DNA of 64,000 nucleotides from Candidatus Nomurabacteria bacterium (GTDB lineage: Bacteria > Patescibacteriota > Saccharimonadia > Saccharimonadales > CAIOMD01), in contig JACKGO010000002.1 in the NCBI GenBank assembly GCA_020631975.1, forward strand, positions 7,218 to 71,217, in the 5' to 3' direction. A program made the translations under genes and the position numbers. Of this stretch, positions 27,877-58,424 are shown piece by piece. Each line of letters begins with the position of its first letter. Positions within the stretch are counted from its first letter, which is position 1. The notes under the pieces are model-generated. The model ran no database searches. It was given only the letters and a program-made list of their open reading frames with translations, and was not told the origin of the DNA.

Positions 27877-30777
27877 TTACTGCACAATGATGTAGTCAAA
27901 CGTATACGTTTGGCCGGTTATTGGTGCATTAAGTGTTTGTATTATTAGTGTGTTTTGCTGCGTGCTATTAAATATTTGTAGGCTAGCTGTGTTGGCATTT
28001 TTGGCAGATAATATGGCTCTTGGTGCTATATCAAACTGTGCGTTAAAAGCTATTTCGGCTAAGTCGCCTGCTGTGGTGTTGGCACCAGCAATTATAGTTA
28101 TGGTTCCGGCGGTGTCGTTACCTTCTATGGTTACTTGTGGGGCTGGTATGTTGTTTAGGGTGTCTTCTGTACCTGCTGCTGTACCTGCTGTTGCTACTGG
28201 GGCGTTACCAGCTGTTATGATGTGGCCGTTTATAGTAATGTTAGCTACGGTGATGTTCTCTACTGTTAGGTTGCCGTTAAAGATAGCGTTGCCATTAACC
28301 GTAAGGCTTGTTAAGGTTGTGTTGCCAGATACATTCAGGCTACCGCCAATAGACATATTGCCATTAATAGTAGCGCTGCCACTAATGTCTAGGCTGGCAC
28401 CTTGTAAGACGGTACTTAGTGGTGGGCCTGGGTAATAGCCTTGTTCTACATAAACCATAACGGTAGTTTTACCACTTAGCGGATCCCAGGCTTCTAGAGC
28501 TTTACCTATAACGGTACCGGCAGCTTCAGCTTTTTGAGCTTTACCAGTGTCTGGTGAAGTAGTAATGTAGTCACCTGGTTGGATGTTGCTGGAAGCAACA
28601 GATATTTTAACTGGTACACGGCCGTTTAGAGCGACAGGCATTGGGTTGTCTTCTTCTTTTATGTTATGACCAGCCGAAGTGAAGTCCCCATAATTGTTAG
28701 ATACAATACCTATAACATTAGCTTGGTACGAACTACTGGTTTTAACTAGGCGAGTTACCTGGCCTTTTACTTTGTTCCAGTCTACATTACCGTCTGTTTC
28801 GTCGTAGGTATTAACCATTTCAGTGCCTATGGCCACAATGTCGCCATATTCAACACCACTAGTGACCGGGTACATTTCTGCGTAGTCAGCAGCTGGGGCT
28901 GCGTTACAGTCACGAAGTTGATAGGCAGTGTTGGCTGTTGGTGCGGTACCATTTGCTAGGCTAGAACAAACAGCGTTGGTACTAGCAGCATTACCTAGAG
29001 CAACACTTACAAAGCCCCGGGCGGTGGTGGTGTCTACATTTAGCAATGTGTTGCCGGCTGCATTTTGTACTTGGAAGGCAGTTGTTGAGTCAACTGAATT
29101 CTTAAATACACTTGGGGACTGTTCACTGGCGATTTTTAGGTAGACATCGTCGTAGTACCATGTACCCGTTGCACCTGTTCGTTTTGTTAAATTAAAGTTC
29201 ATAAAGTACTTGCCCGCAGGAACAACGACACTGTTAGTTCTGAGCGTGTAACTTGTGCCAGGATCTGTCCAGACATCTGTTGTGAAGCTAGGGTTGGCAA
29301 AATCTTTATCTGTAAACTCAACATAGAAACCACCAGTACCGCCACCACCGGCAGAACGCTTGACCCAACCTTCATAATAAATTACCTGCCCAGGTTGCAC
29401 AGGCACCCTTTTAACGGTACCCACATCTTTAGGTCCAGCCGCACTTATGCTATATGAATTATTGCCAGACCTAGCATTATTGTTGACTATATCACCAGTT
29501 GTCCACCACCCACTGGAACTAGCATTACCCAAACCAGACTCAAAACCAGGATTTTCAATTTCATTATTGTTATCTCTTATAGAATTGTTAATGATATAAC
29601 CTGTGCCTACAGTTGACCCAGTTTGATTATCCATATTGAATAATACATTGCCTGTAGCATTTTGAAGCTGAAATGCTTGGGTCGTATCTGTAATGTTTTG
29701 AAATACAGCCGAGCCGTCCGAGTACACACGAACTACATTTTGCGGAGAACCGCTAACTGTTAAGTAAATACCATTCTTACCTTGAAGCTGTAGAATATCG
29801 GTGTCGGTGGTTGACTGTTCACCTACCCAAACATTAGTACCAATGCCGTAATCGCCAAAGTAAAGTCTTGCTGTTGCTCCACTTGACGTTGGGTCATCGC
29901 CAATAATAACCCTACCGTTTGCTGTGTCCACCTTTAGCATTGCGACACCGGCTGCGTTCTGCACCTGAAAAGCGGTAGGCGAGTTGACTTGGTTTCTAAA
30001 TAAGCTTTCTCCATTGCTATTTATGCTAACTATGGGGTTAGTGGCACCCTGCAAGTAAAGTGGAAACCTGTTTGTGCCAGTAGTCAAATTCTCTACAAAA
30101 ATACCATAATTGTTGGCAATGGTGCCGTTGTTTAGTGGGTTGGCTACACTAATGCCAATAGCGTTTGTAATGGTTCCCGTGCTAGAGTTTCTTATTTGGG
30201 CATTAATACCTGTTGCGTTTGTAATTGTGCCTGTGGTTTGGTTGAATACTCTAAATTGTCCACCATATACATAACCGACTGTACCCGTTCCCTCGTTAGC
30301 TGCTTGTCCATTAACGCCATAGAGTAAGGCATTTGTCATGTTGTTACTGGTTGTTCCAGCCCAAGTACCGACTGCGGCATAAGATTCATTAGAAACTGAA
30401 GAAGGCGTAGCTGTTACAGTGAATAATGAACCATTTTGATTGAAGGTGTTGCTGGTAGCAACAGTATCAACATATAAACCAGAACCTCCAGAGACATTCT
30501 GACTTATCAGATTTTCTAAATAAATAGCTGACCCAGAAGTGTCTATTGTGAATAAACTGTTACTAGCGCTATTCTGCACCCTGAAGGCAGTGCTTGAATC
30601 TACTGTGTTTTTGAAGGTTGTAGCGCCAGTGTTACCTACTGTTAGCACATTGCTAGCGCCTTTTTGTAAGGTGAGTAAGTTACCACTTGCACCTGTTTTG
30701 TTAATGAATATAGAGCTGTTATTGGTAACTATCTGTTTGTGCGCTGGCTGGAGCGAGCTGTACAAAGCCAGTTCCAC
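27877..30777 (-). CDS. Locus B C-terminal ORF (fibre repeats, CBM-like jelly-roll, shared C-terminal module)
   Basis: 966 aa. It contains an NPGFE...W...YYDDVYLKI carbohydrate-binding-module-like segment. The last ~150 aa (NLTVENITVANITINGHIITAGN...TYTFDYIIVQ) are homologous to the C-termini of loci C and D. Confidence 0.6.
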   Translation of the reverse strand: MELALYSSLQPAHKQIVTNNSSIFINKTGASGNLLTLQKGASNVLTVGNTGATTFKNTVDSSTAFRVQNSASNSLFTIDTSGSAIYLENLISQNVSGGSGLYVDTVATSNTFNQNGSLFTVTATPSSVSNESYAAVGTWAGTTSNNMTNALLYGVNGQAANEGTGTVGYVYGGQFRVFNQTTGTITNATGINAQIRNSSTGTITNAIGISVANPLNNGTIANNYGIFVENLTTGTNRFPLYLQGATNPIVSINSNGESLFRNQVNSPTAFQVQNAAGVAMLKVDTANGRVIIGDDPTSSGATARLYFGDYGIGTNVWVGEQSTTDTDILQLQGKNGIYLTVSGSPQNVVRVYSDGSAVFQNITDTTQAFQLQNATGNVLFNMDNQTGSTVGTGYIINNSIRDNNNEIENPGFESGLGNASSSGWWTTGDIVNNNARSGNNSYSISAAGPKDVGTVKRVPVQPGQVIYYEGWVKRSAGGGGTGGFYVEFTDKDFANPSFTTDVWTDPGTSYTLRTNSVVVPAGKYFMNFNLTKRTGATGTWYYDDVYLKIASEQSPSVFKNSVDSTTAFQVQNAAGNTLLNVDTTTARGFVSVALGNAASTNAVCSSLANGTAPTANTAYQLRDCNAAPAADYAEMYPVTSGVEYGDIVAIGTEMVNTYDETDGNVDWNKVKGQVTRLVKTSSSYQANVIGIVSNNYGDFTSAGHNIKEEDNPMPVALNGRVPVKISVASSNIQPGDYITTSPDTGKAQKAEAAGTVIGKALEAWDPLSGKTTVMVYVEQGYYPGPPLSTVLQGASLDISGSATINGNMSIGGSLNVSGNTTLTSLTVNGNAIFNGNLTVENITVANITINGHIITAGNAPVATAGTAAGTEDTLNNIPAPQVTIEGNDTAGTITIIAGANTTAGDLAEIAFNAQFDIAPRAILSAKNANTASLQIFNSTQQNTLIIQTLNAPITGQTYTFDYIIVQ

Positions 30778-32930
30778 AACTACCCCAACTAGGTGCAGCC
30801 CCTACCCCATTAGATATTAGGCATGAACCACTGGCGACAGCTGCTAGTTTGCTTATGGTTGTAGCACCTGATGCATAGAGTAAGTCACCTGTGGTGTAGC
30901 TACTAAGACCAGTACCACCGTTGGAGACACTTAGGGTTGTATTGAAGTAAGTAGCACTGTTTCTGTCTACTGCTCCAGTGCTAAGCACACCAGAACCATT
31001 AGTTTGTAGTAAACCTGCAGTGTTTAAGCTACTAAATGTAATGGTACCAGAGCTAGTAATAGCGGTAGCGTTTTGGATAGCTCTACCTGAACTGATGACA
31101 GTTGTGGCTCCTACTTGTAAGTTACCACTTACTAGATTTAGGCTATCGCCAGTTGCTAAGTCTAAGCGGTTAGCGGCGCCACGGCTTAAGGCAGTGTCTC
31201 CACCAAATGTTAGACTGCCGCCAATAGTGGCATTGTTTGTAATGGCAAGGCTGGTACCGACACCTGTAGCACTTAGTCCACCACTAAAGGTAGAAGCTGT
31301 AGCAGTGCTGGCTCCTCTACCAGTAACGGTAGCTAGGGTATCTGCTTCTGTGAATGAGGTTAGACAGGTTGCAGTAGTACAAAGAGTGCCACTAGAGTTA
31401 GGTAGAGTCCATGTCTGGTTAGCGGTTGATCGGCACTAGTAATAGTTCCGTTGAATCTAGCTGCACCACCTGCTGTAACGGACAATATAAGCTGGTCGTC
31501 TGTAGCAGTGGCAGTCCCGGTTGTTAGGTTCCGCACATATGCGGTGTTGTTTAGTTAGTGCTCCGGTTAGAGTTGATGTGCCAGTTACGGCTAGAGTGCT
31601 ACTTAGAGTTGTGGCACCATTTAGAGTGTTAGCACCAGTACCTGTTGAGAAGGTGGTAGCACCAGATTGAGTGAAGTTACCTGATGTAGTGAAAGCACCT
31701 GTGCCAAGAGCTAATGTGTTTGCACCGGATACAGTAACTGAGCTATTGAAGGTGGTGGCACCATTTAGAGTGTTAGCACCAGTACCTGTTGAGAAGGTGG
31801 TGGCACCAGTTTGGGAGAAGTTGCCTGTGGTTGTAATAGCACCAGAGTTGAGTACACCTAGTGTAGTTGTACCGGTTACTCCGAGTGTTCCGCCGATGGT
31901 TGCGTTGTTAGTAACACTAAGGCCGGTGCCAGCACCTGTAGCGCTTAAGCCACCACTGAAGGTAGAAGCTGTAGCAGTGCTAGCTCCTCTACCAGTTACG
32001 GTAGCAAGGGTATCTGCTTCACTAGCTAGACCACAACTGCCCCATATAAGCGTAGTCGCATTACTAGTTAGACACTGACCATTAGTACCTCGAGCTAGTC
32101 GAGTAGAGTTAGTACCGTTAGAGTACAGCAGATCACCATTAGTAGTTAGACCAGATATGGCGTTAATGGCGCCTTGAGCAGTAGTAGCGCCGGTACCGCC
32201 ATTAGCGACGGCTAAGGTACCACCTAGAGTTAAGGTACCACTAGTAGTTATCGGGCCACCACCTAGGGTTAAGCCAGTGGTGCCACCACTACCAGATACG
32301 CTAGTAACTGTACCAGTAGTACTGCTAGTACCTGCTCCAATAGCGGTTCTGAAGCTAGCAGCATCTAGAGCTGAGACAGTGTTGTCGGCATTAACTCTTA
32401 GGAATGTAATGGCGCTTGGGTTAGTAAGAGTAAATAGGTTACCACCGACTGTAGTAGCCCCCAGGTTAGTTCGAGCACCAGCGGCGGTAGACGAGCCAGT
32501 ACCACCGTTAGCGACTGGGACACTAGCTACAGTACCAAGTACACCAGCTGCGGTATTGGTGACAATACCGGCTGTACTAAGACCACTAAAGGTAATAGTA
32601 CCAGAGCTAGTAATAGCGGTAGCGTTCTGGATAGCTCTACCTGAGCTAATGACAGTTGTGGCTCCTACTTGAGGTTGCCACTAGATACATTAACATTACC
32701 CGTACCATTTGGAGTTAGAACAATGTTACCGTTACCCGCAGTAGTTTGCACATTAAGATTATTAGAACCGTCTGTGTAAAGTTTGGAGAGTTGGTTGTTA
32801 TTAACCTGGTTAGTAGAAGTAAAATCACCACCGACATAGAGTGGGCCGTTATTTATCTTCTTAAGACTTATATGATCAATTAGAGTGGTTTCACCACCTA
32901 CCGAAGCATAGTTTGTTAAAATGATAACCC

Positions 32931-33758
32931 TTACATATTTGGTGCCAACTGGGAAGTTGGGGAATACCGTTCCTCTCCACTGGTGGTTGCATTAAATTTA
33001 TGCCAGTTGCCATCGTTAGGAATATTATAGGCAGAGGCAGCAAAATAACACCAACTACCACAAGGCGCGGTCAGAATAGCTACTTTCGATGCGTTATATG
33101 CTTTATATCCAAAGTATAATGTTCCTGGGGTTGAGCCAGTAACTGTTTCTTTGAAATAGCCTTCTAGTTGCAGAGTGTCTTTAGTTGGGTCAACCGGTAT
33201 ATAGTCATCTGACTCAATAGTGCCAGCATTAACCGACTGAGCTGTATAGTTACCAGAGTTAGCTCCGGTAACAATGCCAGTAATCCCTGACCATCCTGCG
33301 GTAGTATTTGTTTCAAAGTCACCATTATATAAAAGATTATCGTTATCTGGCACTAAGTAGCCGCCTTGAGTGATTTTACCCGTTACGGCTAAGTCACCAG
33401 TTACCTGAGCGCCTGTACTACTGACCCTAAATCGTTCTGTGCCACCAACACTAAAGCCGAGGTTGTTGGCATCTATACGGTACATACCCATGTTGGTAGA
33501 GCTACTAAAGCTGTAGCTTGGGCCACCGACTGCACCATCTGCTGCTTGGAAAAGACCGGCTGTAGTTAGCCTATTAGTACCGTTTTGTTGGATGTTACCA
33601 CTTACTAGGTTAAGACTATCACCAGATGCAAGGTCTAGGCGGTTGGCTGCACCACGGCTTAGGGTAGTGTCTGCACCAAAGGTTAATGAACCAGAACAAG
33701 CAAAGTTACCACTAGAATTAGTGATTGTACAGCCTGTAGAACTATTGCCACCAGCCAA
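32931..33758 (-). CDS. Locus B internal ORF fragment
   Basis: 275 aa. It contains the RGAANRLDLASGDSLNLVSGNIQQNGTNRLTTAGLFQAADGAVGGPSYSFSS block and a YNGDFETNTTAGWSG CBM-like domain, both also present in the 3965-aa ORF. It is truncated at SGEE.. by a 1-nt loss relative to the paralog. Confidence 0.5.
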   Translation of the reverse strand: MAGGNSSTGCTITNSSGNFACSGSLTFGADTTLSRGAANRLDLASGDSLNLVSGNIQQNGTNRLTTAGLFQAADGAVGGPSYSFSSSTNMGMYRIDANNLGFSVGGTERFRVSSTGAQVTGDLAVTGKITQGGYLVPDNDNLLYNGDFETNTTAGWSGITGIVTGANSGNYTAQSVNAGTIESDDYIPVDPTKDTLQLEGYFKETVTGSTPGTLYFGYKAYNASKVAILTAPCGSWCYFAASAYNIPNDGNWHKFNATTSGEERYSPTSQLAPNM

Positions 33759-34500
33759 TAGAACATCTCCCGTAGTATTCAGAACTTCAATTGGAGCATC
33801 TACATAAGTACCACCATTGTATCGCTGGACTTGAAATGCTGGGTTAGCACCTCCGCCAATAGCACCTATTGACCAGTTGGTAGTAGCACCATAGCTAAAT
33901 GATAATCTCTGAGAACCTGTGCTACCGCCAGTTATTACAGCGGCCGCTTCACCACTGCCCGGCCCAACAGTTAATCCACCACCAACAGTAGCATTGTTGG
34001 TAACACTAAGGCCCGTACCTGCTCCGGTTGCACTTAGGCCGCCACTAAAAGTTGAAGCAGTTGCAGTGCTCGCACCACGAGCTGTGACAGTTGCTAGGGT
34101 ATCTGCTTCAGAGAATGAGGTTAGACAAGTGGCGGTGGTACAGACAGTGCCAGTTGTTGGAAGCGTTAAGCTGGTAGCGCCACTAGTAGTAAAGAATAAG
34201 CTGTTACCAGCTGTAGATAACGGAATAATACCAGAGTTATCTTGTAGAGTGTAAGTTCTAGCAGCGGTTAGGTTGGCGTTGGTTATCGTACCGTCAAAAC
34301 GAGCACCAGTACCAAGAGCGGCTGAAGTAATAAGAATACGATCATCGGTTGCCGTAGCATTATCTACAGTTAGACCACGAATGGTAGCTCCGCCAGTGAA
34401 GGAGCTAGCTGTGGTAGTTGTAGCACCACGAGTAGTAACACTTTGAGGGTATCTGCTTCAGCCGCTAGCTTGCCATTAAAGGTTGTCCAATCGGCGGCAG

Positions 34501-37092
34501 TTAAGAAACCTTTAGTTGAACCACTAGCTGCTTGGCCGTTAGCGTAATCAAGGGATATAACGCCGGCGGCATCGTTAAAGTCGGCGGCTGTAAAGGTAGC
34601 AGCACCTTGGTAGTGCCATTAGCTGCGGCATCGGCAATAGTTAGAGCACCAGTCGTAGCACTAAGTGACAATGCTCCACTAGCACTGACAGCTACCGTAC
34701 CAGAACCGTCAGGTAGAGTAATAGTTCGAGCAGTAGCACCTAGTGTGGTTAAAGCTTGAAGAGTAATAGTGCTAGAACCAGCACCGGAACTTCTAAAGAC
34801 AACTCCACCATTATTAGAACCAGTTGTACCAAGGGTTAGAGCATTAGCTGCAGTGAAGGTGTTAGCAGCACTAAAGCTGTTAGCTTGGTCTTTGTAAGCA
34901 ACATTACTTAGTGTGCCGCCAGTATTAATGTTGGCGCCATTTAATAGAATGCTAGTTGTAGCATTAAGAGTGGCAGCAATACCAGTACCAGTACCAATAT
35001 TAAAGTTAGTGTTCTGGGCTGTACCTGGTGTAGTACCTTGAGCTTGGATATAGTTGGCCGAACCAGAGCTAGCTGCAAATGCGGTACAAGTAATGGTATC
35101 TCCTAGAGCAGTAATAGCGTTACCAGCACTACAGGCAGCTGGGTAATTGTTTAGAGCAGTCCAGTCAACTGTACTGCCAGAACCAATAGTTAGGGTGTCG
35201 TTAATATATGTATCTGTGATGACACTACCCTGCCAAGTACCACTAGTAATAGTGCCAGTAGCGGTAATAGCGCTTAAGTTACCAGTAGTTAGAATAGTAC
35301 CGGTAGCATTAGGTAGAGTGTAGGTTCTGTTAGCAGTTAAATCGGCGCTGGTAATAGTACCGGTAAAGCGACCGGCTCCACCAGTTGTGACACTGAGTAC
35401 TAATAGATCATCTGTAGCTGTAGCTGTGTCTACGGTTAGACCGCGGATGGTAGCTCCGCCAGTGAAGCTTGGGTTGTTAACCACATTAACCGTCAAACTC
35501 CCATTAGCCCCACCATCAGTGATGCTGATGTTAGAGCCGGCGGTTAGAACTCGTTCGTTAGTTAGGGTACCGTCTAAACCTACGGTAATGTAGCTAGCAG
35601 CAATTGGAGCGCTACCACTACCACCTGTACCACAAGTACTGCTGAAGCTTAGGTTACCACTAGCGTCACCAACAATACAGTCACCACTACCGCCGTAGCC
35701 ACTAGGTAGTTTGAAGGTTAGGTTACTAGCAATAGCAGCTGACTGGAGAGTGGTCGTGTTAGAGCTACCGTCGCTTAGGACTAAGCTACCAGCTTGGCTG
35801 GTAGTACCGACACTAACGGAAGCTCCTTGGACAGTTAGAGTACCGCTAAAGGTTGGAGAGTTAGCGACATTGATGGTCAAGGTGCCGTTGGCACCTGTGT
35901 CAGCGACGCTGATGTTAGTGCCAGCACTGAGCAAGCGTTCGTTAGATAGACCAGAGTCATAAGCTAGGGTGAGATACTGAGCATTGTTAGGAGCACTACC
36001 ACTACCACCTGCTCCACAGGTACTGCTGAAGCTAAGAACACCAGTGCCGTTAGTGACTAGACAGTCACCGCTAGTGCCGTTAGTAGCTGGGAGGGTGAAA
36101 GTCAGGTTAGAGCTAATGGCCGCTGACTGGATGGTGGTGGTATTACTGCTACCGTCACTAAGAGTGAGAACACCAGCTTGAGTAGTAGTACCAATACTGA
36201 CACTGGCGCCTTGGAAGACACCAGTACCAGCTACGGTTAGGTTACCGTTAGCTGCTAGCAGTAGTCGGTCGTTACCACCAGACTGAAGCTGGAGTAAGCT
36301 ACCAGTACCAGTTTGGTTGATCCGCAGTGCCGTGTTGGCTGAGTTGACAGTTTGGGTGGCACTAGGTGCCAGTTGGGCCAGTTGGTCAGCTGTAAAGGAG
36401 CCCGTGGCTCCTTTGAGGGTTTGGGCTTGTTGGGCAGCAAAGGCGTATGGTACAGCCGTTACCTTGATGCGAGGGTTCATCTCACCATTCCATGGTGGGG
36501 TGGCGGTTTGAGTAGGACCGCCGATGTTCATGCTGAGCCAGAGTTCTTGGCTCCAGTCTATGGTGCCAGGAAAGGCTGTACCACCAGCCGTGGTATCTGC
36601 CAGGCTGACAGTCAGGTAGCCGTTCTTGACCTGGACACGGTAGTCGTTGCCAGGTGCGGCGCCATTGGTGTCGTAGCGAGTGTCTGTCCAGAGCAGTGTG
36701 CCACCAGAGGCTGCATCGTACAGTTTAAACTGGACGTTGTAGTAGCCATCAGGCACCAGGGCGCCGGTGTTGGTGAGGATACGGGCTTGGAAGTTAATGG
36801 TGGTGTTGGCGGCTGCTAACGCGTTGGGTGTGAAGGCGGGCGTATATAGATATATAGCGGTAAGGAGGCTGAGAGTGAGGGTGAACAAAAGAGAGCTGGC
36901 AGTAATGGTGCGATGGAATATACGGGTTGAGTGGGAATTGGTACTACCAGGATGTAGTACGTATGTACATAATTTTGTAAGTCTATAAAAAACAAAAAAC
37001 ACAGGCCCGCTTATGTGGGATCTGTGCCTAAGATATCTGTTGGTAGGTGCGACGTTGCGGCCTTTTAGCCAATAACGCCATTTGCGCAGCAT
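34501..37092 (-). CDS. Locus B N-terminal ORF (leader + conserved N-domain + repeats)
   Basis: 863 aa. The leader MLRKWRYWLKGRNV... is identical to the locus D remnant. The N-domain AANTTINFQARILTNTGALVPDGYYNVQFKLYDAASGG... is shared with A and C. Confidence 0.7.
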   Translation of the reverse strand: MLRKWRYWLKGRNVAPTNRYLRHRSHISGPVFFVFYRLTKLCTYVLHPGSTNSHSTRIFHRTITASSLLFTLTLSLLTAIYLYTPAFTPNALAAANTTINFQARILTNTGALVPDGYYNVQFKLYDAASGGTLLWTDTRYDTNGAAPGNDYRVQVKNGYLTVSLADTTAGGTAFPGTIDWSQELWLSMNIGGPTQTATPPWNGEMNPRIKVTAVPYAFAAQQAQTLKGATGSFTADQLAQLAPSATQTVNSANTALRINQTGTGSLLQLQSGGNDRLLLAANGNLTVAGTGVFQGASVSIGTTTQAGVLTLSDGSSNTTTIQSAAISSNLTFTLPATNGTSGDCLVTNGTGVLSFSSTCGAGGSGSAPNNAQYLTLAYDSGLSNERLLSAGTNISVADTGANGTLTINVANSPTFSGTLTVQGASVSVGTTSQAGSLVLSDGSSNTTTLQSAAIASNLTFKLPSGYGGSGDCIVGDASGNLSFSSTCGTGGSGSAPIAASYITVGLDGTLTNERVLTAGSNISITDGGANGSLTVNVVNNPSFTGGATIRGLTVDTATATDDLLVLSVTTGGAGRFTGTITSADLTANRTYTLPNATGTILTTGNLSAITATGTITSGTWQGSVITDTYINDTLTIGSGSTVDWTALNNYPAACSAGNAITALGDTITCTAFAASSGSANYIQAQGTTPGTAQNTNFNIGTGTGIAATLNATTSILLNGANINTGGTLSNVAYKDQANSFSAANTFTAANALTLGTTGSNNGGVVFRSSGAGSSTITLQALTTLGATARTITLPDGSGTVAVSASGALSLSATTGALTIADAAANGTTKVLLPLQPPTLTMPPALYPLITLTAKQLVVQLKVS

Positions 37093-37370
37093 GTTGGTTT
37101 TTTGGTTTTTTTGTTTTTTTAGTGTTTGTGTGTGTATACCGCTGTTTTGGTTTACAGGTTTTAGTATATATGATTAGCCGCAGCAAGCAAGCCATTTTGT
37201 ATACAAAAATAGAACATGTGAATACACCCAAAAATGTGTAAATAATGTGTACAATATGTTGTGTATACAACATCGTAACAGCTTTAATATATAAAATCTT
37301 ATAGTTAGATAGCAAAATTAATTGTAATATTATTTACAACATTATAATTATACCACGTAGAGTTTTCCAC
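37093..37370 (-). promoter_or_regulatory. Conserved upstream module of fibre locus B
   Basis: T6-GG-T7-G-T7 tracts (37097-37119) next to the ATG, TTGTATACAAAAATAGAACA (37197-37216), TGTACA (37248-37253), CATCGTAACAG and TTTTCCACAG (37362-37371). Confidence 0.5.
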
Positions 37371-37407
37371 AGGTATATTTTAATTATCTTACAAAATTGA
37401 TTACATG

Positions 37408-38415
37408 TTACTCAAGGTTTTGTGTCATATGTTCATACACAATAACTGAAATTTTACCTATGTGTTGGCTGGCGAATTCATCACTACCATTAATCATTAC
37501 ACACAGTAAGTACGGGCGTGTTGGTACGTAAAATATGCCACAATCACTTTGAGTACTTTGCTCAAAACTCCCAATTTTATGGGCTATAGTGGGCATTGTA
37601 TCTTGCGGTATGTACCGTTTTAGCCTGTCATTAAATGTTGTATTTGTAAGTGTATACAACATTTCTTGGGAATGTTCTTTAGATATATAGCATGCAAAAT
37701 ATAAGCATTTTAAGATAGAAGAATACGCCTCTGCACCAATTAAAGTTGAGCCTTCTTTATCGCTAGCATAAGATAAATCAACAAAATTAAATACTTGATC
37801 AATTGTTTGTAAGCCTACTTTTTGTGATAATACATCTGCTAGTGCCCGCAAGGCTGTGTTGTCTGAATCTCGTAACATTGTTGTTACTAGATCGTCTAAT
37901 GTCAGTTTGTAGCCACTGCCCTTTTTATATAAACTACCGTACGTACTGTCTAGATTTGCTTGCGTTAAAGTAATAATATCGTCTTTTTTCAGCGTACCTT
38001 CTTCTAGCGCATGGTAGTATTGCATGGCAAAAGGCACTTTAAGCAATGATGCGCCAATTAAGGTGTGTGTTTCGTTAAGCCCAACAGATGTTCCGGTAGG
38101 TAAATACTCATAATAAATGCTGTAGTCAATGTTTTGTAAGTTCGCATCTGTGTAATCTGTTAACTTTTGCCTTAAATCTGTAAAATTCACGATTCGTTCA
38201 TTGCCATTAGTGCTAAGGATACGATCTGCTAGCAAATTATAGCGTTCCTGTTTGGTGTTTAGTGAATTCTTATAAATTACTACAGTTAAGACGCCCCCAG
38301 ACACCATGCCAAATACAATCAAAACGACTGCAATTGCCAGCCGCTTGGCCACCTGTTTTTTGTTTTGTACTCTTAGCATAAGCGTAAGTCTAATTATAGC
38401 ACCCAATAGCCCCAA
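37408..38415 (-). CDS. Membrane-anchored class A beta-lactamase-like serine hydrolase
   Basis: 335 aa with an N-terminal TM helix, SxxK (SLLK), SDN (RDSDNTAL) and a KTG-like HKIGS. Confidence 0.65.
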   Translation of the reverse strand: MGLLGAIIRLTLMLRVQNKKQVAKRLAIAVVLIVFGMVSGGVLTVVIYKNSLNTKQERYNLLADRILSTNGNERIVNFTDLRQKLTDYTDANLQNIDYSIYYEYLPTGTSVGLNETHTLIGASLLKVPFAMQYYHALEEGTLKKDDIITLTQANLDSTYGSLYKKGSGYKLTLDDLVTTMLRDSDNTALRALADVLSQKVGLQTIDQVFNFVDLSYASDKEGSTLIGAEAYSSILKCLYFACYISKEHSQEMLYTLTNTTFNDRLKRYIPQDTMPTIAHKIGSFEQSTQSDCGIFYVPTRPYLLCVMINGSDEFASQHIGKISVIVYEHMTQNLE

Positions 38416-39033
38416 TTACGGTGTATTGGCTATAAATTGCTTGATCACGTTAAGATCATCATGATACGCCTTATAATCTGCTACAAAATCGGCATAATTA
38501 ACATCATCAAATAGTTCTAAAATCTTATTTGACTTAACCCAGTCTGCAGTTTTATTGCCCAAATAATATGGCAAGCTAGACCATTCGTAGGTATTATAGT
38601 TATCTGGGTTTAAATGAATGTAACGGCTGATGTGTAGTAGCTGCGCATCATCAGTAATTCTTACTGCACGATACCTCTGCTGAAACACTGGCCCGACCCG
38701 TTTGTATTTTTTGTTAAAGTACATGCCGTACGCTGTGGCCAAACTCCGCATAAAATTTGTAATTGCTGTGGGGTCTTCTTTTTGGTAAATGAACAAATGA
38801 AAGTGGTTGCTCATTAAGCAATAAGCCAGTAGATCAACTTCGTTATAAAAATTTGGGTGGTTCGTTCTATTTGCCTTCTTCACTTTTTTTATACCAAGAT
38901 ACCGCTTTAATAGCGCTAAGAAAACAATAAAGTCTTCTTGATCCCTAAATATACGATTTTTATTTACACCCCTGTTATAAAAATGATAGTAACTCTCGGC
39001 TGCGTACTGCTTAATAAGGTTTCTTCCCGGCAT
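38416..39033 (-). CDS. Y1 (HUH) transposase-like protein, IS200/RayT-like
   Basis: 205 aa with the HUH motif NHFHLFIY and a C-terminal catalytic-Tyr helix ISRYIHLNP. Its stop abuts the start of the hydrolase gene (38416/38415). Confidence 0.75.
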   Translation of the reverse strand: MPGRNLIKQYAAESYYHFYNRGVNKNRIFRDQEDFIVFLALLKRYLGIKKVKKANRTNHPNFYNEVDLLAYCLMSNHFHLFIYQKEDPTAITNFMRSLATAYGMYFNKKYKRVGPVFQQRYRAVRITDDAQLLHISRYIHLNPDNYNTYEWSSLPYYLGNKTADWVKSNKILELFDDVNYADFVADYKAYHDDLNVIKQFIANTP

Positions 39034-39744: not shown

Positions 39745-42700
39745 TTATTCCACAATAAAGTACGTAAAGGTGTACGTCTTTCCGGCTTGAGGTGCCTGAT
39801 CTGTATAAATACTAAAGCTGGTGTTGGTGGTTGTAGAGCCGTCGTAATATGCGCCTACTTTGGCACTATCGCGGTTAGCTGGGCTAAATACTACGCGTGG
39901 TTTATTGGTAAAGGCAGTATTAAAGGTAACTTTTGCGAGTTCGTCTGCGGTTGTGTTTGCGCCGGCAACCACTGTAATAGTGCCGGATGTATCGTTACCA
40001 CTAACAGTTACTACGGGGGCTGCGATATTGTTCAGTACGTCTTCTGTGCCAGCTGCTACGCCTGTGCTGACCGTAGGTGTATTACCAGCAGTGATAATTT
40101 TACCGTTTACGGTGATGTTAGCGACGGTGATGTTCTCTACTGTTAGGTTACCAGCTATTACTACATTGTCTGTTACAGTTAGGCTCTTCATGGTTACTGG
40201 GCCGGTGACATTTAGGCTACCTACTATATTTAGGCTACCTTGTATTGTGCCACCGTTAGTGAGGTCTAGAATGTTGTTAGAGGCCGGTTGAATGGAGTTT
40301 TCAAGCGCGGTAAGGCGATTTTGAGCATCGGTTATCATGGCTTGTTGTTCTTGAACGGCGCCGATGAGAGGTGTGACGAGGCCTGCGGTATCTAGTAGCA
40401 GATAACCTTGACTATCTACGCTCACAAATTCAGGTAAAACCGTTTGGACATTCTGAGCTATTAGCCCGAGTTTTTGGGTACCAGGATCTGACTTGTATCT
40501 ATAGTAAGTGGGCTGTAGTTGCATTATCTTAGCAAGATTGCCTGTTGCTGAACTATCTATATATTTCAGCCTTTCATCTGATGTGCATGATAGAGAACCA
40601 TGTATAGTACAATTTGAAGTTTGGGTATAAAGACTCAGGCTCATTCGTTGACCTGGGTCACCAATTGTCGCCCATTGAGCACCGGGGTTTAGAGCTAGTG
40701 CCGAAGTAGAATTATTTACTCCTATATATGCAGCATTAGTACCAGTATTAGTCCAAAGTTGCATGTAATTATAGTTACCATACACTCTAAAACTATTGTT
40801 TTGATATGTTCGAACAACATTACTTTCGATAGAGTATATGCCCGCACCATAATTCTCGTTATACCATCCTGTCTGTCCATAAGACCTAAACCAGTTAGAT
40901 GCATAGACAGCACTATCAGCTGTAATGCTACCATTACTCCAAAAGCCACCATTATATATATTGGCATACTTGTTAGTAATTGACGCGCCATCTTGCCAAA
41001 TCTGCTCGCGACTATGAGTTATGACTGCAGCTGGTGAATACTGTACGAGTACATCACTATTTACATTGTTACCATCATTCTGGACCCCAATGATCAATGC
41101 GCCGTTTTCTGTACTATCACCCCAGTAGTTATAAGCATTATTATCGTTATCCCAATGTATATACCCATAATCAGAACCACCCGTATCTACCCCACCAAAC
41201 AATTCTTCTCTTCCAAAAAAGATATCCTTACCAGCATTGATACCCACACCAGTACTTGTAACGGCAAACGAGCGTTTTTGTGCTTGTATTTTGTCTACAT
41301 AAGCAGTTATCGCACCAGCGGCATCACCCTGGCCTGTACTAATAACTATTCTGCCTTTTAACTTGCCGGCAGGTATTTGGAATGTACCTCTACATTCTGC
41401 CCAGCTCGTTGTGAGGTTGCAATCTTTTACTGTGTATATGGCTGCTCCTGGGACAAAGAACATAGGGTCATTTGCACTATCGTTCAAAAGTATCCCAATG
41501 GAAAGATTTGGTACAACACCACCGGCGGTACCTGAGTAAAAACCATAGGCGGACACTTCTATAAATTCGCCGGGTGATACATCAAATGAATCTAACATAT
41601 CATACCGCTGGTAACCACCCCCACCCGGGTTTGCCGCAAAAGTGGCAGCCGCAGAATATGAACCAACATTGCCATAATGAGTGGCACTTCTGGTAGATGT
41701 TGAGCGGAGTTGCCAAAATGTACCATAGCCAATTGGTACATCATTTGCTGCGTTCCATTGTTCTAGATCACCGTTAACTAAAATGCTTTGTGCGTAGGAA
41801 TACGCATTAGCACCATTAACCTTTAGTAGGTCTGTTGTATTTACCATGCTCAACGCCCCGCCTGACGAAGTCCATACAGCAGCGCTAATATTTTGCCAAG
41901 AGCCGGCATTATTTTTTACCTGCAAGGTACCAGCATTGTCTCTTATGCCATAACCAGCTGAACCACTGGTTGAGCCGAAGTTGAGATAGCTGTTTGAGCT
42001 AGCAAGTATGTTGCCATTTACTGTTAATTTAGCTGCAGGATTAGTGTCGCCAATACCGACATTGCCATCGCTAAGAATTGTCAGTTTGTTACTCCAGCCG
42101 CTTGCTCCTCTAGTAAAGAATGAAAGGTTTGCGTATGCACTGCCATGATTGATATTCTGTGCAGCAATACCCGCCGCTATACTGCCATTGCCGTGAAACG
42201 CTAGCTCTGTCCAGTTATTTGTAGTTCCATCACTGTTCCTGAGAGCCATTTGAGCATTGCTACTAAATGCTCCGGTAGATGTATTGGCCTTTGAAACATC
42301 CAACAAATATTGTGGGTTAGTTCGGCCGATTCCCAAATTACCAGCTGTGGTTAATGTCATGTGTGCCGTTGCTGCACCGTTGGCATGGAAGGCTAAATTA
42401 TACCCGTTGTTCGTGACAAGTCTTGCTGTGGTATCGCCGGTGCTTGCGGCTACACCCAAAATGTTGGTTCCACCTGCTTGCCACATTTGGTTAAAGTCGC
42501 CTGCGGCATTTGTAAAGGTTGCGGGCGCTGTGTAGTTAACAGTTAGCCTATAGCTTGACCCCGTTGTACCGACCGAGACATTACCGTTGTTACCCATAAA
42601 CATAGTGCTTGTAGAAGAATTATTGCGAATGTTGAAGCCACTTGCACCATAGTTAAGATACATTACATTGTCGCTCCACCTTGGCCACAAGAACTGTTCA

Positions 42701-45700
42701 TATGTTCCACCAGAATTTTTAGCCTGCAAGGTAGCTGTGTTTTCAAACTGCAATACACCACCAGTGCCAGTAACAACAAGATTGTTCGCTTTACCTTCAC
42801 CGCTTATCCAATAATTGCTTGAACTTTGTGCACTACTGTTTTGGTTCTGAATATAGTTACCACTTCCACTAGCCGGAGCAAAAGCTGTTGAGTCTAGACC
42901 GTCTAGCAAATCGGCATTAAGGTTTGTAACTTTTGTTGTAGACGATACGGTAAATGGCGAAGTACCAGTTGCAATAGTAGAGGTGAACCTAGTACCTTGT
43001 ATTACGCCAGCAGCCGTTAGGTTGCCAGAACCATCTAAGACTAAGCCGTCTAGTTGGGTGCCCGATGAGTTAACTGTTGAAAAGCGCATTGAATTATCTA
43101 ACAAGCGAATCATTGAGCCACCGCGGTTGGTGTTAATGCGCGGGAAGCCAGTGGTGTTGTACATATTGTTAGCTATACCAACACCAGTGTATGTGTAGCC
43201 AGGTTCGCTTGCCCACAGCATAAGATCTGCTGTGTTAGTTGCACCACCATCACCAATAGAATGAAGCAATAGTTGCGTATCACCATGACCACCATATACT
43301 TCTAACTTGCGGCTAGGTGTAGCAGTGCCTATGCCTACTCTGTTGAGAGCTGCATCTACAAATAGTGTGTTTGTGTCAAAGGTGGCGTTACCAGTTACTG
43401 ATAGAGTTGATGTGATGCTGGTAGCACCATTCAACGTATTAGCACCGGTGCCAGTGCTAAAAGTTCCGCTACCGGTTTGGCTAAAGTTAGAGTTATTAGC
43501 TACAGTTATACCACCGTTGAAGGTACCAAGGCCCGTGAAGGTGCTGGTGCTGGTTACAGCTAGTGTACCGCTAAATGTTGCAGCACCAGCATTTGTAATA
43601 GTTAGTCTTGCGGTATTTGCTGTCTCTAATACAAGTGCTTGTGAATCGTTAGTGCCCAGAGTTGCCGTAGTACCAAAGCTGTTACCGTTTTGGATAAAAG
43701 GTCCGCTTTGGGAAGGCGTATTTATTAAAGTGTAATTAATAGGTGTAGTTTCGTCTGTTACTAATGCCCCACTCCATGCATCACCCCAGCCATCTATACT
43801 GCTATGGCCTGCTATTATTTCTTCTATAACCACCTTGGGGTACTGCCAAACTGTAGAAGTATTGCCTAGCATGATAACTGGATTTGTACCGTTACTAGCT
43901 AGTCTAATTGTAGTGAATGGTGCACTACCGCGTATTTCGGCCGAAGCATTTACCCAGCTTGGAGTAGTGTAAGCATATCCGCTAACTATTGCCTCCCACG
44001 CACCATAGCCCGAATAATCATAGCCCTTAATAGTGAATCTTAACATAGTAGCAGTAAAGCCTTTTGGCGCGGTAAGCACTATAGTACCAGTTTGGTTTGA
44101 AGCAGAAATGTTATACGTATAAACATTTTTATATGTTCTTACGTTGTTTTGAGACCTACTAGTGACGCCGTTTACATCAAGTGCTGTGTTCGGCGTAGTC
44201 GTACCTATACCTACATTACCGTTGTTTTGCACGGTTAGTTTAGTTGTGTCTGCAGTTTGCAGATATAGATTACCTGTACCGCGTGAGTTAAGTATTAGAT
44301 TTTGGTTATTTGTTGAACGAATTTCGTTTTGTAGTGGCGTACTGTCGTATGATGATCCTAGTAGCAAGCCTCTAGCCCTTATATTGGTAGCACCACTAGC
44401 AGTAGTTAGTACCGAAAGGTTACCAGCATCTGTCATGATTTGACCACTAATAACATTTAGGCTATCCCCGCTGGCTATGTCTAGGCGGTTAGCTGCACCA
44501 CGGTATAAGTTAACGTCTGAGCCAAACCGTAGTGGGTACGTAGCGCTGGAATCAGATAATGTTGTTAGGCCTCTTGCTGTAGTGGTGTCGGTGGCTGTAT
44601 CACCCAGTGTGGTGTTGCCGGCTACTGTTAAAATACCGGCTGCAGCTAGTGTGCCGGAAGCATTACTAACAGTAATGGTGCCTGTGCTTGTAGTTAGTAG
44701 GCTATAGTTATTCTGAGAAGAAAGTAGTGCGCTTGGTTGTATACGGAATGCATTGTTTGTACCTGCTCCAGTGATACCAAATAAAGTATTGCCAGTTATG
44801 TCTAGGCTAGCTATTGTAACTTCACTGCCACCAGCAGGCGCAGTAAAAGAAGTGGCGCTGAAGTAGTTCATACTAGAACCTTCAGAAGTTACGGTTACTT
44901 CGCTTGACTGACAAGCTGCCACAGCCTGAGCATCTATATAAGTTACATTAGGTGCACCGCTGTCATTAACCATACGAACATTGCTCCAACAACTTGTGCC
45001 ATTTTGACTGAGCATAGTTATTGAGCCAGATGTTCCCCAGTCTTTGACAACATTCATGACAATTTGGTTAGGAACTCCACTACCGCCACCATTAGACAGT
45101 ACTATTTTTGCTGCACCTCTACCTGCCCCACCACCCGCGCTAGTCGCTATACGGTACCAGTTACCAGCAACGAGAGTACCACCTTGTGTTGTAGTAGTTT
45201 TGGTAACGGCACCAATATCTGAAGCAACTTGTGCAGTCGTACGATATTTAAGAACACCACTGTCATTGGTGACAAAACCAGTAAAGGTTGCGTCATCTGC
45301 AGTTTGGTTTATAGTCGTAGCTCCACTAGTAACGGTTAAGCTGCCAGTAAAGTTAGCTGATGATGATATTGTTTGACCATTAATGAGACCAGAGCTTATG
45401 GTACCTATATTAACTAAGTTGCCACTGCTGTCTATACGATTAGTTCCTGCACCTGCACCAGTATTAATGCCTTGTACGCCATTCACAGATGAGTTAAACA
45501 GAAAGCCAGAGCCACTGGTTTTAGAGAATGAACCGTCGCCTAGGCTTATTGTACCTGTGGTGCCGTTACCTACATATACGGCACCGAATCTACCAGTGCC
45601 TGTAATGTTAAGGTTACCAGTTTGGGCTGTTCCTGGTGTACTGCCTTGCAATTGTACATAGCCACTGCCACCTGTAGCCGGCGCAAAGGCGGTAGAGTCA

Positions 45701-48700
45701 AGACCATCTAGCGTTGTTGCATCTACACAGTTGTTAGTTACACCAACGTTAGTAGCAGCCACAGTAATACAGCTACCAGCACCAACTGTAAGGGTAGTAG
45801 AGCCACCAAGTGCAGTGCTACCACCGCCAGTTAGACCATTGCCAGCTGTTACAGTTAGGGCACCGCTGCCAGTTAGATAAGTATTAGCGATGGTATTACC
45901 TTGGTAGGTTACATTTTGGAGGACTCCGGCGTTAGTGAGGCGGGTTGTGTTGTTGGTTAACAATGAGCCTGAAACGATATTTAAGCTGCCATTATAGATT
46001 GTTCCTCCATTGGTACTCACATACAGCTCTTGATATGGTGATGCTTCACCAAAGTCGAGATATAGATCTCCTATCTGAATACCGTTATTAGAAGCGTCTT
46101 CTGTTATGGTTATGCGATACCCTTTTACATACTTCCCCATAGAATTAGAAGCGTAGTAGTAGTTTTTGCTATAGCCCGTGACATTAGTAACTGTTTCCCA
46201 GTTATATGTGATGTTGTCTAGTGACGTATATAGCTCAATTGTGAAGTTAGTTGGTCTCCAGTACCTACTGTTCCACCCGTAAGATACTCCTCCTGTCTGT
46301 GTATTTCTTACAGGAAAATCAACTTGTACTATAGCAGGTGCTACTGCTGACACATCTCCACCTGATGTTGTAGTGGGTGTTGTGTCACCATCAAATAACG
46401 ATGCTAACGATGAAAATAGTCTTACGGCACCAGGCTGTGTAACAGTATAGCCGGGGCGTGATGTAGCATTATAAAGAATATTATATTCACCTGCTCTAAA
46501 ATTCATGGTATTTCCACCAACAGGGCTCGTAGCATTGATAATGTTATTTGCTAAGATGTTGACTGAGCCATCAGACTGTACCCTAAGTCTTTCATTTCCA
46601 CCGGTGCTAAAGCCGAGCGTATCAGCGCCGACTAAATACATACCAGTATTAGTATCACTACTAAAGCTGTAGGATGGGCCACCTACTGCACCATCTGCTG
46701 CTTGGAATAGACCGGCTGTGGTTAGTCTGTTAGTTCCGTTTTGCTGGATGTTACCACTTACTAAGTTAAGGCTATCACCTGTAGCGAGGTCTAGGCGGTT
46801 AGCGGCGCCACGACTGATGGTAACATCTGAGCCTAGGGTAAGGTCAGCGCCTGTCACTGTAAGATCTTGAGCAATGGTGACATTAGCCCCATTTAATGCT
46901 ATTCCACCGCCAGCAGTGTTGTTTATAACAAGGTTGTTTGAACCACCGTATTGGAAGTCTGCAAAGTTAATTGGTGTGCCATTGGCATCTGCTTGTAAGC
47001 GAATATAGTTATTTGAGCTATTAATGCTGTCGTTTTTAAACACCGCCATAGTGCCCCCACCATAGCCATCACCTATTCCATAAACTTGGAAAAAGCCACT
47101 GCCACTACCGTTTTGGAAGATATTGCTACTGCCCGTGAATGCTGAGCCAGTGTCTACAGTTAAACTTCCACCTAGGCGGCCATTGCCACTTATCCAAAAG
47201 TTGCTAGAACTTTGGGCACTTGCATATTGGTTTTGGATATAGTTACCGCTACCTGATGATGAAGCAAATGAGGAACAAGTTATTGTGTCGCCAAGTTGAG
47301 TTATGGCCTGCCCTGCGCTACAAGCACCTGGATAGTTTGTCAGTGCAGTCCAGTCTACTGAGCCTGCTGAACTGACCGTTAAGGCATCGTTTATATATAT
47401 GTCGGTTATGACATTGCCGTTCCATGTTGCGCCAGTAATGGTGCCTGTTGTAGAAACGTCTAAACCCGAACTATCTATGCTAAAGTTACCACCGCCACTA
47501 AACCCGTAAGCGCCACTGGATTGGCTGTAACCAGTGATGCTAGAAAGAGCCCCAGCGGCGCTAAGCCGTTGCGTGCCACCAGTGTATAAGTTGCTTGCAA
47601 TATTTACATACCCAGAACCATTAGGAGTTAGAACAATATTGCCGTTACCAGCGACGGTTTGGATGTTAAGGTTATTTGAACCATCTGTGTAAAGCTTAGA
47701 AACTTGGTTGTTATCTACCAAATTAGTACTAGTAAAGTCACCGCCAACGTAAAGTGGGCCATTATTTATCTTTCTAACACTAACGTGATCAATTAACGTT
47801 GTTTCACCACCTGCTGAGCTGTAGTTAGCTAGGAATAGTACCCGAACATATTTTGTACCCACTGGGAAGTTGGGGTAAGAAGTACCTTCTCCACTGGTTG
47901 TCGCATTTAGTTTATGCCAATTACCGTCGTTTGGAATATTATAGCTAGCTGAAGCGAAGTAGCAATACGTACCACATGGTGCAGTGGTTATTGCCGATTT
48001 TGCTGCATTGTAGGCAATGTAACCAGCGTAGATAACACCTGGAGTAGTGCCTGTAACAGTTTCTTTGACATATGCTTCAAACTGAAGTGTGTCTTTGGTT
48101 GGGTCTACTGGTATATAGTCTTCAGATAATACTGTTGAAGAGTTAACTACTCTTGAAGTGTAATTGCCTGAGTTACCGCCGGTCGTTGTGTCTGTCAAGC
48201 CCGACCAGCCCGCAGTTGTATTAGTTTCAAAATCTCCATTGTAGACTAAGTTGTCGTTATCTAGCGCTAAGTAACCACCTTGTGTAATTTTACCCGTTAC
48301 AGCTAAGTCACCAGTTACCTGAGCCCCAGTAGTAGTGACTCTAAGCCTTTCTGTCCCAGCTACACTAAAGCCAAGATTGCTAGCATCTATACGGTACATG
48401 CCCATATTTGTTGAGCTACTAAAGCTATAGGCTGGCCCACCAACTGCACCATCTGCTGCTTGGAAGAGACCGGCTGTGGTTAGCCTATTAGTACCGTTTT
48501 GTTGGATGTTACCACTTACTAAGTTTAGACTATCTCCTGTAGCAAGGTCGAGGCGGTTGGCTGCGCCACGGTATAGGTCAACATCTGCACCAAAGCGAAG
48601 TGGATAGGTGCTGCTTGAGTCAGATAGTGTTGTTAAGCCTCTGACGGTCGTCGTGTCTGTGTTCGCATCACCCAGAGTGGTGTTGCCGTTTACTTGTAGA

Positions 48701-54860: not shown

Positions 54861-55195
54861 TGCGGATATTTATTTTTATTTAGGCTGCACTACATTGCGG
54901 ATGTAATGAGCGTTTTTTGTTGCGGTTTGTCTGCGGATGACTTTGTTTATTTAGTTTTTTGCTTTTGACAAACTTACTTACCAGCATATCTGAGGCAACA
55001 GAGATGTACAAGACTTTTTGTATACAAAAATAGAACACAGAAAGAAACATAAAAACACATACATAGTGTGTGCAATATGTAGCGTTACTTACATCGTTAC
55101 AGGAGCAATATATAAAACACAGAGCTACCAACAGTGCTTCACACTGTATGCATTATTACAACAACAATATTTGAGGGGGTAGAGTTATCCACAGG
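54861..55195 (-). promoter_or_regulatory. Conserved upstream module of fibre locus C
   Basis: TTGTATACAAAAATAGAACA (55018-55037) and CATCGTTACAG. The distal block AAACACAGAGCTACCAACAGTGCTTCACACTGTAT.CATTATTACAACAACAATATTTGAGG is shared only with locus A. TTATCCACAG is at 55185-55194. Confidence 0.45.

Positions 55196-58321: not shown

Positions 58322-58354
<33 letters not shown>

Positions 58355-58390: not shown

Positions 58391-58424
<34 letters not shown>

Follow-up and report, generated by a model that had tools for sequence, protein, structure and literature searches.

The 64-kb stretch of DNA analyzed here (contig JACKGO010000002.1 of assembly GCA_020631975.1; below, the window) is a segment of a bacterial chromosome of the Saccharibacteria type (Patescibacteria), and more than 25 kb of it codes for giant fiber proteins. 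Associated with these genes are four copies of a ~590-bp module, the cassette, which joins ~280 nt of noncoding DNA to ~306 nt of coding sequence. The copies are mosaics of one another, and at a single locus different strains carry different combinations of paralog-derived blocks between nearly unchanged flanks. These patterns were probably produced by recurrent short-tract gene conversion and unequal recombination between fiber paralogs that bear their own upstream regions.

The four copies were recovered by self-BLAST at the positions given in a preliminary description of the window, all in direct orientation on the minus strand, and they share a 5' edge motif, CTGTGGAWAAMTC, at 3228-3240, 37360-37372, 55182-55194, and 57652-57664. 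The motif is confined to the cassettes, with four matches in the window versus 0.26 expected by chance. Anchored at the last base of the codons for TTINFQ (2654, 36787, 54549, and 57080), the cassettes extend over 2654-3240 (A), 36787-37372 (B), 54549-55194 (C), and 57080-57664 (D). Each locus has a unique flank. Cassette A lies downstream of rplU (3352-3657), B downstream of a beta-lactamase-like gene (37408-38379), C next to the gene tail present at locus D, and D ~170 nt downstream of the 5S rRNA gene.

The conserved upstream DNA covers ~190 nt, from CTGTGGAWAAC to the palindrome TTGTATACAA. Three noncoding blocks, CTGTAACGATGT, ACAYATTGTACACATTATTTAC, and TGTTCTATTTTTGTATACAAA, are invariant in all cassette types, and the segments between them come in discrete types. 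Cassette A has a T1 distal block, A-type mid, promoter-proximal, untranslated region (UTR), and N-leader blocks, an ABD-type leader, and the cleavage site PNALA; cassette B, listed in the same order, reads T2-B-BD-BD-BD-ABD-PNALA. Cassette D is B-like and carries a -1 deletion in a T6GT6 tract (57280-57295). Contrary to the preliminary description, which listed it simply as a further copy, cassette C is a divergent type. It has a T1 distal block resembling that of A, with a mid block, 5' UTR, and leader (MIHEV...KLSRFALLALALV...PVAKA) of its own, and could not be aligned with the other copies at high identity over most of the 5' UTR and leader.

The block TGTTCTATTTTTGTATACAAA holds the palindrome, which is perfect at 37197-37206, 3065-3074, and 55018-55027 (three matches versus 0.21 expected) and is interrupted by a 2-nt insertion in D. 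It is a candidate operator or promoter element. An A-rich 5' UTR with no obvious Shine-Dalgarno sequence precedes an ATG or GTG start. In the 5' region, no Rfam match above noise was found, and no stable RNA fold was predicted (z-score, -1.3). Two other candidates for function were set aside. Hand-picked promoter elements (TTGTTC/TTGCTT/TTGTAC and TATACT/TATGCT, 16 to 17 nt apart) scored only 8/12, and the likeness of TGTGGATAA to a DnaA box was dropped because the motif is found only at cassette edges and nothing else hinted at a replication origin.

Similarity among the copies depended on which part was compared. In self-BLAST, B and D were 92.6% identical over 597 nt (36787-37377 / 57080-57669), A and B 84% over 1808 nt, and A and D 84% over 507 nt. 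A and C were 83% identical over 215 nt at the distal block (3031-3240 / 54983-55194) and 96% identical over a tract of 1410 nt (A 1315-2721, minus strand; C 53208-54616), from which B had diverged past the first 480 nt. Sliding identity in windows of 40 alignment columns shifted between about 20 to 50% and 97 to 100% at sharp boundaries. In the distal block, A matched C (90 to 92%), versus 41 to 52% for A and B. Between 2998 and 2866 (A coordinates), B and D were 98 to 100% identical, versus 32 to 72% for A and B. Across the leader-coding part (A 2866-2656), A, B, and D were 97 to 100% identical, versus 18 to 85% for C. The first ~480 nt coding for mature protein, the homogenized start that specifies an immunoglobulin-like (Ig-like) N-terminal domain (B 36311-36786, A 2178-2653, and C 54073-54548, all minus strand), were 95 to 100% identical in A, B, and C. 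From ~480 to ~1340 nt, A and C were mostly 92 to 100% identical, with two windows at 84 to 88% and a drop near the end, and B was at 50 to 92%. D fell to background (25 to 50%) immediately past TTINFQ, exactly where its identity to B had been said to end.

Maximum chi-square tests of these boundaries gave p < 0.002 in four of five triplets and p = 0.01 for C versus A/B. The proposal that A is a three-way chimera also stood: it is nearest to C in the distal block and body, the body resembling B in part, and identical to B and D in the leader. Simple duplication with later, uneven divergence, in which the copies never recombined and some blocks were under strong purifying selection, would account for the invariance of TGTTCTATTTTTGTATACAAA and of the encoded YLYTPAFT and TTINFQ in all cassette types, elements that are probably under selection. 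However, it is incompatible with relationships that conflict along the sequence, as those of A do, and with the finding, described next, that one locus has different paralog-derived blocks in different strains with identical flanks. Divergence along the copies was not uniform, and this explanation is extremely improbable.

Contigs of the same species were found by exact-protein look-up of neighboring gene products, namely, those of rplU (locus A), of the Y1 transposase and beta-lactamase-like genes (locus B), and of the LAGLIDADG gene in the 23S intron (locus D). They came from ENA megahit assemblies (k141 contigs), WANG18-1 scaffolds, JGI, Logan, and two NCBI metagenome-assembled genomes (MAGs), one with a 617-kb contig (L013). 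In a second long-contig MAG, GCA_041402185.1, neighboring proteins did not lead to loci B, C, and D. JGI metagenomes were also scanned with patterns; the TTINFQ pattern gave no matches, and the palindrome-block pattern matched a single contig, L043, from the B locus. The 1-kb flanks and the 590-nt cassette were compared in 24 same-species contigs. The flanks of A and B were 99.8 to 100% identical to the window (0 to 2 differences per kb), and those of D were 99.1 to 99.6% identical (4 to 8 differences). The A and B cassettes differed by as many as 33 mismatches and 23 gap positions over ~590 nt, and the D cassettes by more.

At locus A, nearly all of the differences equal the base found in the B, C, or D copy of the window. 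Private sites numbered 0 in L015 and L016, 1 in L017, and 7 to 10 in most other contigs, where they are partly due to alignment ends of partial contigs. Block typing with diagnostic oligonucleotides distinguished at least six mosaics at this locus, in which the mid block was of type A or C, the promoter-proximal block A or BD, the UTR and N-leader A or BD, and the cleavage site PNALA or PVAKA. Locus B was constant in 11 contigs save for the PNALA/PVAKA patch. An 8-nt UTR deletion in a B-type patch at locus A (L019) was also present in a B-locus allele (L023/L125), which fits a transfer from B to A. The segmental gene conversion proposed in the preliminary description is strongly backed by these block combinations, which vary at one locus across samples and whose variant bases match other paralogs. 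The T6GT6 tract was identical in 22 contigs, with T6GT5 found only in D of the window; phase variation at this tract was rejected on account of that invariance.

Locus D was found in three states. The first has the T2 cassette and tail of the window. The second has a third distal type (T3) and a B/D leader in frame with a normal fiber body, open for at least 930 amino acids (aa) in L035. In the third (L036, L038, and L042), a C-type cassette directly follows the rRNA terminator and the 2.5-kb D unit is absent. The spacing between D and C in the window is 2531 nt, and these are strains without exactly that unit.

The gene tail at locus D (55256-57079, minus strand) had been regarded as an unrelated passenger. 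Instead, it is the C-terminal tail of a fiber gene of the same family, with YadA-like NTAIG repeats, Peptidase_S74, and a C-terminal beta domain that is common to B and C. Past TTINFQ, the leader frame of D reads CYYLFYCS and then stops. The tail, the last ~600 residues of a fiber, lies in a different frame from the leader, shifts frame at least four more times, and, compared with its intact relatives (L012 and L124), starts in the middle of a domain. Because of the out-of-frame junction, the mid-domain start, and the frame disruptions, D does not represent a head that has acquired a new body; most likely it is a head-plus-tail remnant specific to this strain, derived most simply by internal deletion of a full-length gene. 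The suggestion that a shared head is being recombined onto different fiber bodies rested mainly on D and is not sustained, since D is no working fusion and since in other contigs the locus holds either a normal in-frame fiber gene or a C-type cassette.

Several points weigh against recurrent conversion and unequal recombination as the source of this diversity. The population evidence comes mostly from short-read metagenome assemblies, in which long identical paralog stretches can be mixed, and short-read linkage is unreliable across the ~270-nt ABD leader and the ~480-nt A/B/C N-domain. Therefore, the pairing of bodies and heads in L027 and L035 and the PNALA/PVAKA patch were not relied on. 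The contigs compared were assemblies from different samples. The junction between cassette and tail at locus D has no independent support. The preliminary description had also credited each copy with its own promoter. The whole upstream region is on each copy, and its conservation suggests that a promoter lies within the cassette, but a promoter consensus scan gave site counts no higher than in shuffled sequence.

A further weakness is that the fiber genes of the window have many frame disruptions (at least two in A, six in B, two in C, and five in D). In short-read contigs, these genes have long intact open reading frames (ORFs) of at least 3235 aa, of 1019 aa, and of 930 aa, and no obvious frame disruptions were seen across 24 kb of housekeeping genes in the window. 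Thus, the consensus of the window in the fiber genes may be imperfect owing to long-read consensus errors. At A, the window is short by 2 nt and then by 1 nt relative to L013, outside homopolymers. The disruptions may be either consensus errors or real decay.

A further possibility considered is that the assembler created the copies or their chimeric junctions by mis-joining or by blending sequences in the consensus. The concentration of the frame disruptions in the repeated fiber genes, the fact that two of the differences between D and B are -1 changes in homopolymers, and the lack of the D junction and tail in any other same-species contig are in line with this possibility. However, the flank, cassette, and first 118 nt of the body at A, including the cassette junctions, were matched at 98.3% over 879 nt by an independent contig (L001/L015). 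At B, flank and cassette were found without gaps in JGI and ENA contigs (99.5% over 2577 nt in L043 and 99.8% over 10276 nt in L025). The C-type cassette was present in three other assemblies and directly follows the rRNA operon in L042 and L038. D is only 2.5 kb long, lies between the unique rRNA flank and C, and would be easily spanned by a long read, and four loci with different unique flanks are incompatible with a collapsed repeat. In the other contigs, several block switches span shared stretches of only about 22 to 53 nt and recur in k141 contigs, SPAdes-type scaffolds, and two contigs from NCBI MAGs (L013 and L022). The junctions at locus D, immediately past the rRNA terminator, are not assembler jumps, because the sequence there is not shared between types. 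An assembly artifact is thus a distinctly unlikely source of the mosaics.

The direct orientation of the copies, the scattered breakpoints, and the lack of a dedicated recombinase among the scanned ORFs point to general homologous recombination as the pathway. Between direct copies with long stretches of identity, ordinary homologous recombination would copy short patches, of tens to a few hundred base pairs, and would occasionally delete or replace whole genes. Unequal crossing-over between direct copies could remove or replace units such as the one defined by the D-C spacing. The expected outcome would be a homogenized head, which would presumably retain common regulation, export, and attachment, together with blockwise mosaics that differ between strains at one locus and strain-specific gain, loss, or truncation of genes, of which locus D of this assembly may be one case. 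The direct geometry of all copies fits deletion and conversion over inversion. Paralog pairs elsewhere in Saccharibacteria behave alike, with shared 5' homology that extends from -556 to +382 in RYN_415 and begins exactly at the mature N-terminus in two other genomes.

A site-specific switch that used the CTGTGGAWAAC motif and the TTINFQ boundary at the ends of the cassette, in the manner of the Mycoplasma vsp/vpma/vsa systems or a shufflon, would explain why all copies begin sharply at an 11-nt motif confined to cassettes and why D has a sharp 3' edge. Between C and B there is also a gene for a Y1 (IS200-like) transposase, and the exact start of paralog homology at the mature N-terminus in two other genomes would fit as well. 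However, all copies are direct, no inverted repeats were found, and breakpoints in the population fall at many different positions within the cassette instead of clustering at a single site. The D tail starts in mid-domain, and all B-locus contigs have the Y1 gene at one constant place. Pfam scans of 18 larger ORFs, a minority of the total, detected no recombinase of the serine or tyrosine (Xer/integrase) type. A site-specific switch is very improbable.

It is possible, though unlikely, that the cassettes belong to a programmed system of the pilE/pilS, vls, or msp2 type, in which one expressed gene is rewritten at high frequency from silent donors, with D as a silent head-plus-tail donor. Short and recurrent mosaic patches and the much greater variation of loci A and D than of their flanks would be expected of such a system, and D, which is nonexpressible as it stands, could in principle donate. 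Nevertheless, all four copies have the full upstream region and leader, three have complete N-terminal coding sequence, the head is the most homogenized part rather than a variable exposed region, and no recombination-initiating element was identified. The analogy to these systems drawn in the preliminary description fails on the first two of these points. A broader proposal, that the head is a dedicated recombination handle for a programmed host-range or immune-evasion switch, by which an obligate episymbiont with a tiny genome reassorts host-binding bodies and tails at high frequency, with D-like remnants as silent donors and promoter swaps that rewire expression, is speculative, and we consider it rather unlikely.

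The leader-coding part of the cassette is unusually long. The leader ORF of B (36787-37092, minus strand) has 102 codons and encodes a basic N-terminus, VFFVFY, the hydrophobic stretch SSLLFTLTLSLLTAIYLY, TPAFTPNALA, and then AANTTINFQ. Equivalent leaders on the minus strand are at 2654-2962 (A), 54549-54860 (C), and 57080-57385 (D, frameshifted). The frame of 102 to 104 codons up to the Q of TTINFQ is open in A, B, and C; A and B differ by an in-frame 3-nt indel, and the leader of C, wholly different in sequence, is equally open. Gene callers took the same ATG start on independent ENA contigs. The PGAP start differs, being an internal TTG in the NCBI product of the B gene ('hypothetical protein H6795_02370 [Candidatus Nomurabacteria bacterium]'; P0001). 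The leaders of relatives have ~23 to 92 aa, most of them 40 to 66, and often a similar layout of basic N-terminus, hydrophobic stretch, often YT[RP], and AxA. We read the whole 306 nt as probably coding for an extended secretion leader, with the internal TTG as an alternative start. Sec-type features are present (basic n-region, hydrophobic h-region, and AxA, ...HRTITASSLLFTLTLSLLTAIYLYTPAFTPNALA|AANTT), which suggests that the leader is an extended signal peptide with a putative cleavage site at the AxA.

In two A-locus contigs from different samples (L014 and L020), ~110 nt of the central leader-coding block, about 3700-3810, is absent. Its absence breaks the long leader ORF, and the called start becomes MSPLLCLPSS...PVAKA. 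The allele may naturally lack this part of the leader, or the assembly may have a gap.

The genes that bear the cassettes belong to a family that is widespread among Saccharibacteria. Its members start with a long leader, a conserved mature N-terminus, and an Ig-like N-terminal domain, continue in a variable body, and end in a Peptidase_S74 chaperone tail. The hallmark of the mature N-terminus is xxT[IL]NFQ[AG]RL...PDGxYxhxFKhY, and the copies in the window read TTINFQARI. Of 75 homologues at E<=1e-5, about 70 carry the INFQ head in their first 400 residues, the others being without the N-terminus. Residues N8, F9, Q10, A11, G18, D23, G24, F30, Y33, and W43 were invariant in alignment A2. The GTDB representative genomes contain 261 relative loci, almost all of them labeled Saccharibacteria or Saccharimonadia. 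There is no Pfam model for the INFQ-head family. AlphaFold modeled residues ~7 to 120 as an Ig-like beta-sandwich (predicted local distance difference test score, pLDDT, around 90 in the core; mean, 73), and a fold search of the PDB with the N-domain model returned only generic Ig-like sandwiches, all with E>=0.057. We conclude from their predicted features that these are chromosomal genes for giant secreted fibers of head-body-tail design.

The B fiber gene measures ~9 kb in all (27877-37092), and the 863-aa B ORF is its first part only. The rest (27877-34500, minus strand) has at least six frame changes and runs down to a 966-aa ORF at 27877-30777. Exact-protein look-ups with the 863-aa B ORF, P0001, and the 335-aa beta-lactamase ORF returned no identical record. 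The C fiber gene comprises about 15 kb, a 3965-aa ORF plus upstream fragments; the rest of it (39745-53132, minus strand) contains tandem units and this ORF, which has Peptidase_S74 near its C-terminus. The S74 domain (PF13884) was found at residues 3688 to 3740 of the C giant and in the D tail, where it scored as intact once stitched (E=6.8e-12), and was not detected in the 966-aa end of B. The C tandem array (49371-53225, minus strand) has about 3.3 units, mostly 98 to 100% identical, whose starts are 1167, 1166, and about 1147 nt apart. At 1166 nt, one unit falls a base short of a whole number of codons, and its position matches the frame breaks at 51642-51699 and 52760-53133. A period of 1167 nt is beyond the detection of Tandem Repeats Finder.

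In another relative, L124 (1-8921; JGI 3300056626), a D-like tail, 96% identical in amino acids to the S74 region of D, forms the C-terminus of a giant fiber gene at the site that corresponds to the end of B; the gene is broken into pieces of 1268, 1068, and 306 aa. The location of this tail indicates that tail modules, too, move between fiber genes. In L011 (9300-24344; JGI 3300056808), from a related species, a syntenic 1447-aa fiber gene follows the ribonucleotide reductase (RNR) cluster and is followed by a 3735-aa S74 fiber gene. The upstream region in L011 could not be aligned to the cassette, and TTATCCACA is present about 315 nt before the start codon.

Recombination between surface-protein genes is known from other bacteria. 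The bab genes of Helicobacter pylori occupy several loci with their own upstream regions and shared 5' (and 3') homology, and intragenomic conversion within the first 60 to 240 bp gives chimeras with the 5' part from another paralog (PMC4552749). Occupancy of loci A, B, and C by babA, babB, and babC, and the chimeras, vary between strains (PMC4552749). The loci described here match this pattern of multilocus conversion between paralogs, with their own upstream regions, shared 5' homology, and strain-variable, paralog-derived chimeras, the last seen mostly in short-read contigs. In contrast, Bab proteins are ~80-kDa outer-membrane adhesins, whereas the present genes encode secreted fibers of several thousand residues in a Patescibacteria lineage, and conversion here also covers the ~280 nt of upstream noncoding DNA. 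bab genes have CT-repeat phase variation in the 5' coding region, and the sole comparable tract here is the invariant T6GT6. The opa genes of Neisseria, with about 11 dispersed loci, have their own promoters, a conserved leader-peptide region, and mosaics generated by interlocus recombination. Dispersed loci, a conserved leader, and interlocus mosaics are common to both systems, but CTCTT leader repeats drive opa switching and no such repeat is found here, and the proteins and organisms are unrelated.

The Mycoplasma vsp/vpma/vsa genes have a conserved 5' UTR and signal-peptide region and unrelated bodies, and in vsa, alternative 3' bodies are attached to a block made up of promoter and 5' coding sequence (PMC2268961). 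Paralogs in the window share a conserved 5' UTR and signal-peptide region as well. However, the Mycoplasma genes are clustered, face both directions, depend on one promoter or expression site, and are served by a dedicated Xer-type recombinase with defined target sites, whereas here the upstream region is on every copy and the copies are all direct, spread over more than 55 kb, with no such recombinase among the scanned ORFs. In pilE/pilS, vlsE, and msp2, segmental conversion likewise yields mosaic surface-protein genes, but from promoterless, truncated donors into a single expression site, with variation in the exposed region. In the fiber genes it is the promoter-proximal head that is exchanged and homogenized, and all copies are potentially autonomous. 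Phage tail fibers and endosialidases resemble the fibers described here in having PF13884 near the C-terminus (in the C giant and the D tail) and a modular, exchangeable architecture. Unlike them, the present genes are chromosomal, lie beside housekeeping genes, and have secretion leaders. The cassette head had no relatives among IMG/VR viral contigs, and a phage origin of the head was rejected for this reason.

Saccharibacteria live as obligate epibionts and have genomes near 1 Mb. Host recognition by Saccharibacteria is largely unknown, and the behavior of their fiber genes bears on episymbiont biology. In the population data, recombination of the 5' heads and of whole loci far outpaces mutation in the chromosome around them. 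If the fibers mediate attachment, recombination between paralogs would be a ready source of variation in host range or in evasion of phages or immunity. Full-text searches turned up no paper on gene conversion in Saccharibacteria surface genes, and the fiber loci extend to Patescibacteria a kind of surface-gene recombination already familiar elsewhere. MAG assemblies break or mislead at such loci, and annotations of frameshifts or 'hypothetical' fragments there need care.

The fiber genes lie among housekeeping genes and an rRNA operon. The region from 3.7 to 27 kb encodes isoleucyl-tRNA synthetase (IleRS), class II RNR, FtsZ, FtsA, PriA, and IF2. The Y1_Tnp gene (38416-39033, minus strand; 205 aa; PF01797), which encodes an IS200-like tyrosine transposase, sits between the end of the C fiber gene and the beta-lactamase-like gene upstream of B; from its constant position, it looks domesticated or immobile. 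The rRNA operon occupies 57835-64000 on the minus strand. Its terminator hairpin (57665-57720) reads AAGCCCTCCGAACAGGAGGGCTTTT in all of the other contigs compared (L035 to L042), with two base substitutions in L035 and L037. The window instead has ...CAGGAAAGCTTTT, which gives a weaker stem, and is missing ~35 nt that lie between a pair of TGTG microhomologies immediately upstream of cassette D. The 23S rRNA gene (58108-62041) is 3934 nt long, versus 2925 positions in the model, and contains an ORF for a 169-aa LAGLIDADG homing endonuclease (59105-59614, minus strand; PF00961, E=5e-28), which together point to an intron in the 23S gene. The identical LAGLIDADG protein was encoded on at least 24 contigs from many samples. 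The spacer tRNA genes (62461-62782, minus strand) are arranged on the transcribed strand as 16S, tRNA-Ala(TGC), tRNA-Ile(GAT), and 23S, so that Ala precedes Ile, the reverse of the common Ile-then-Ala order.

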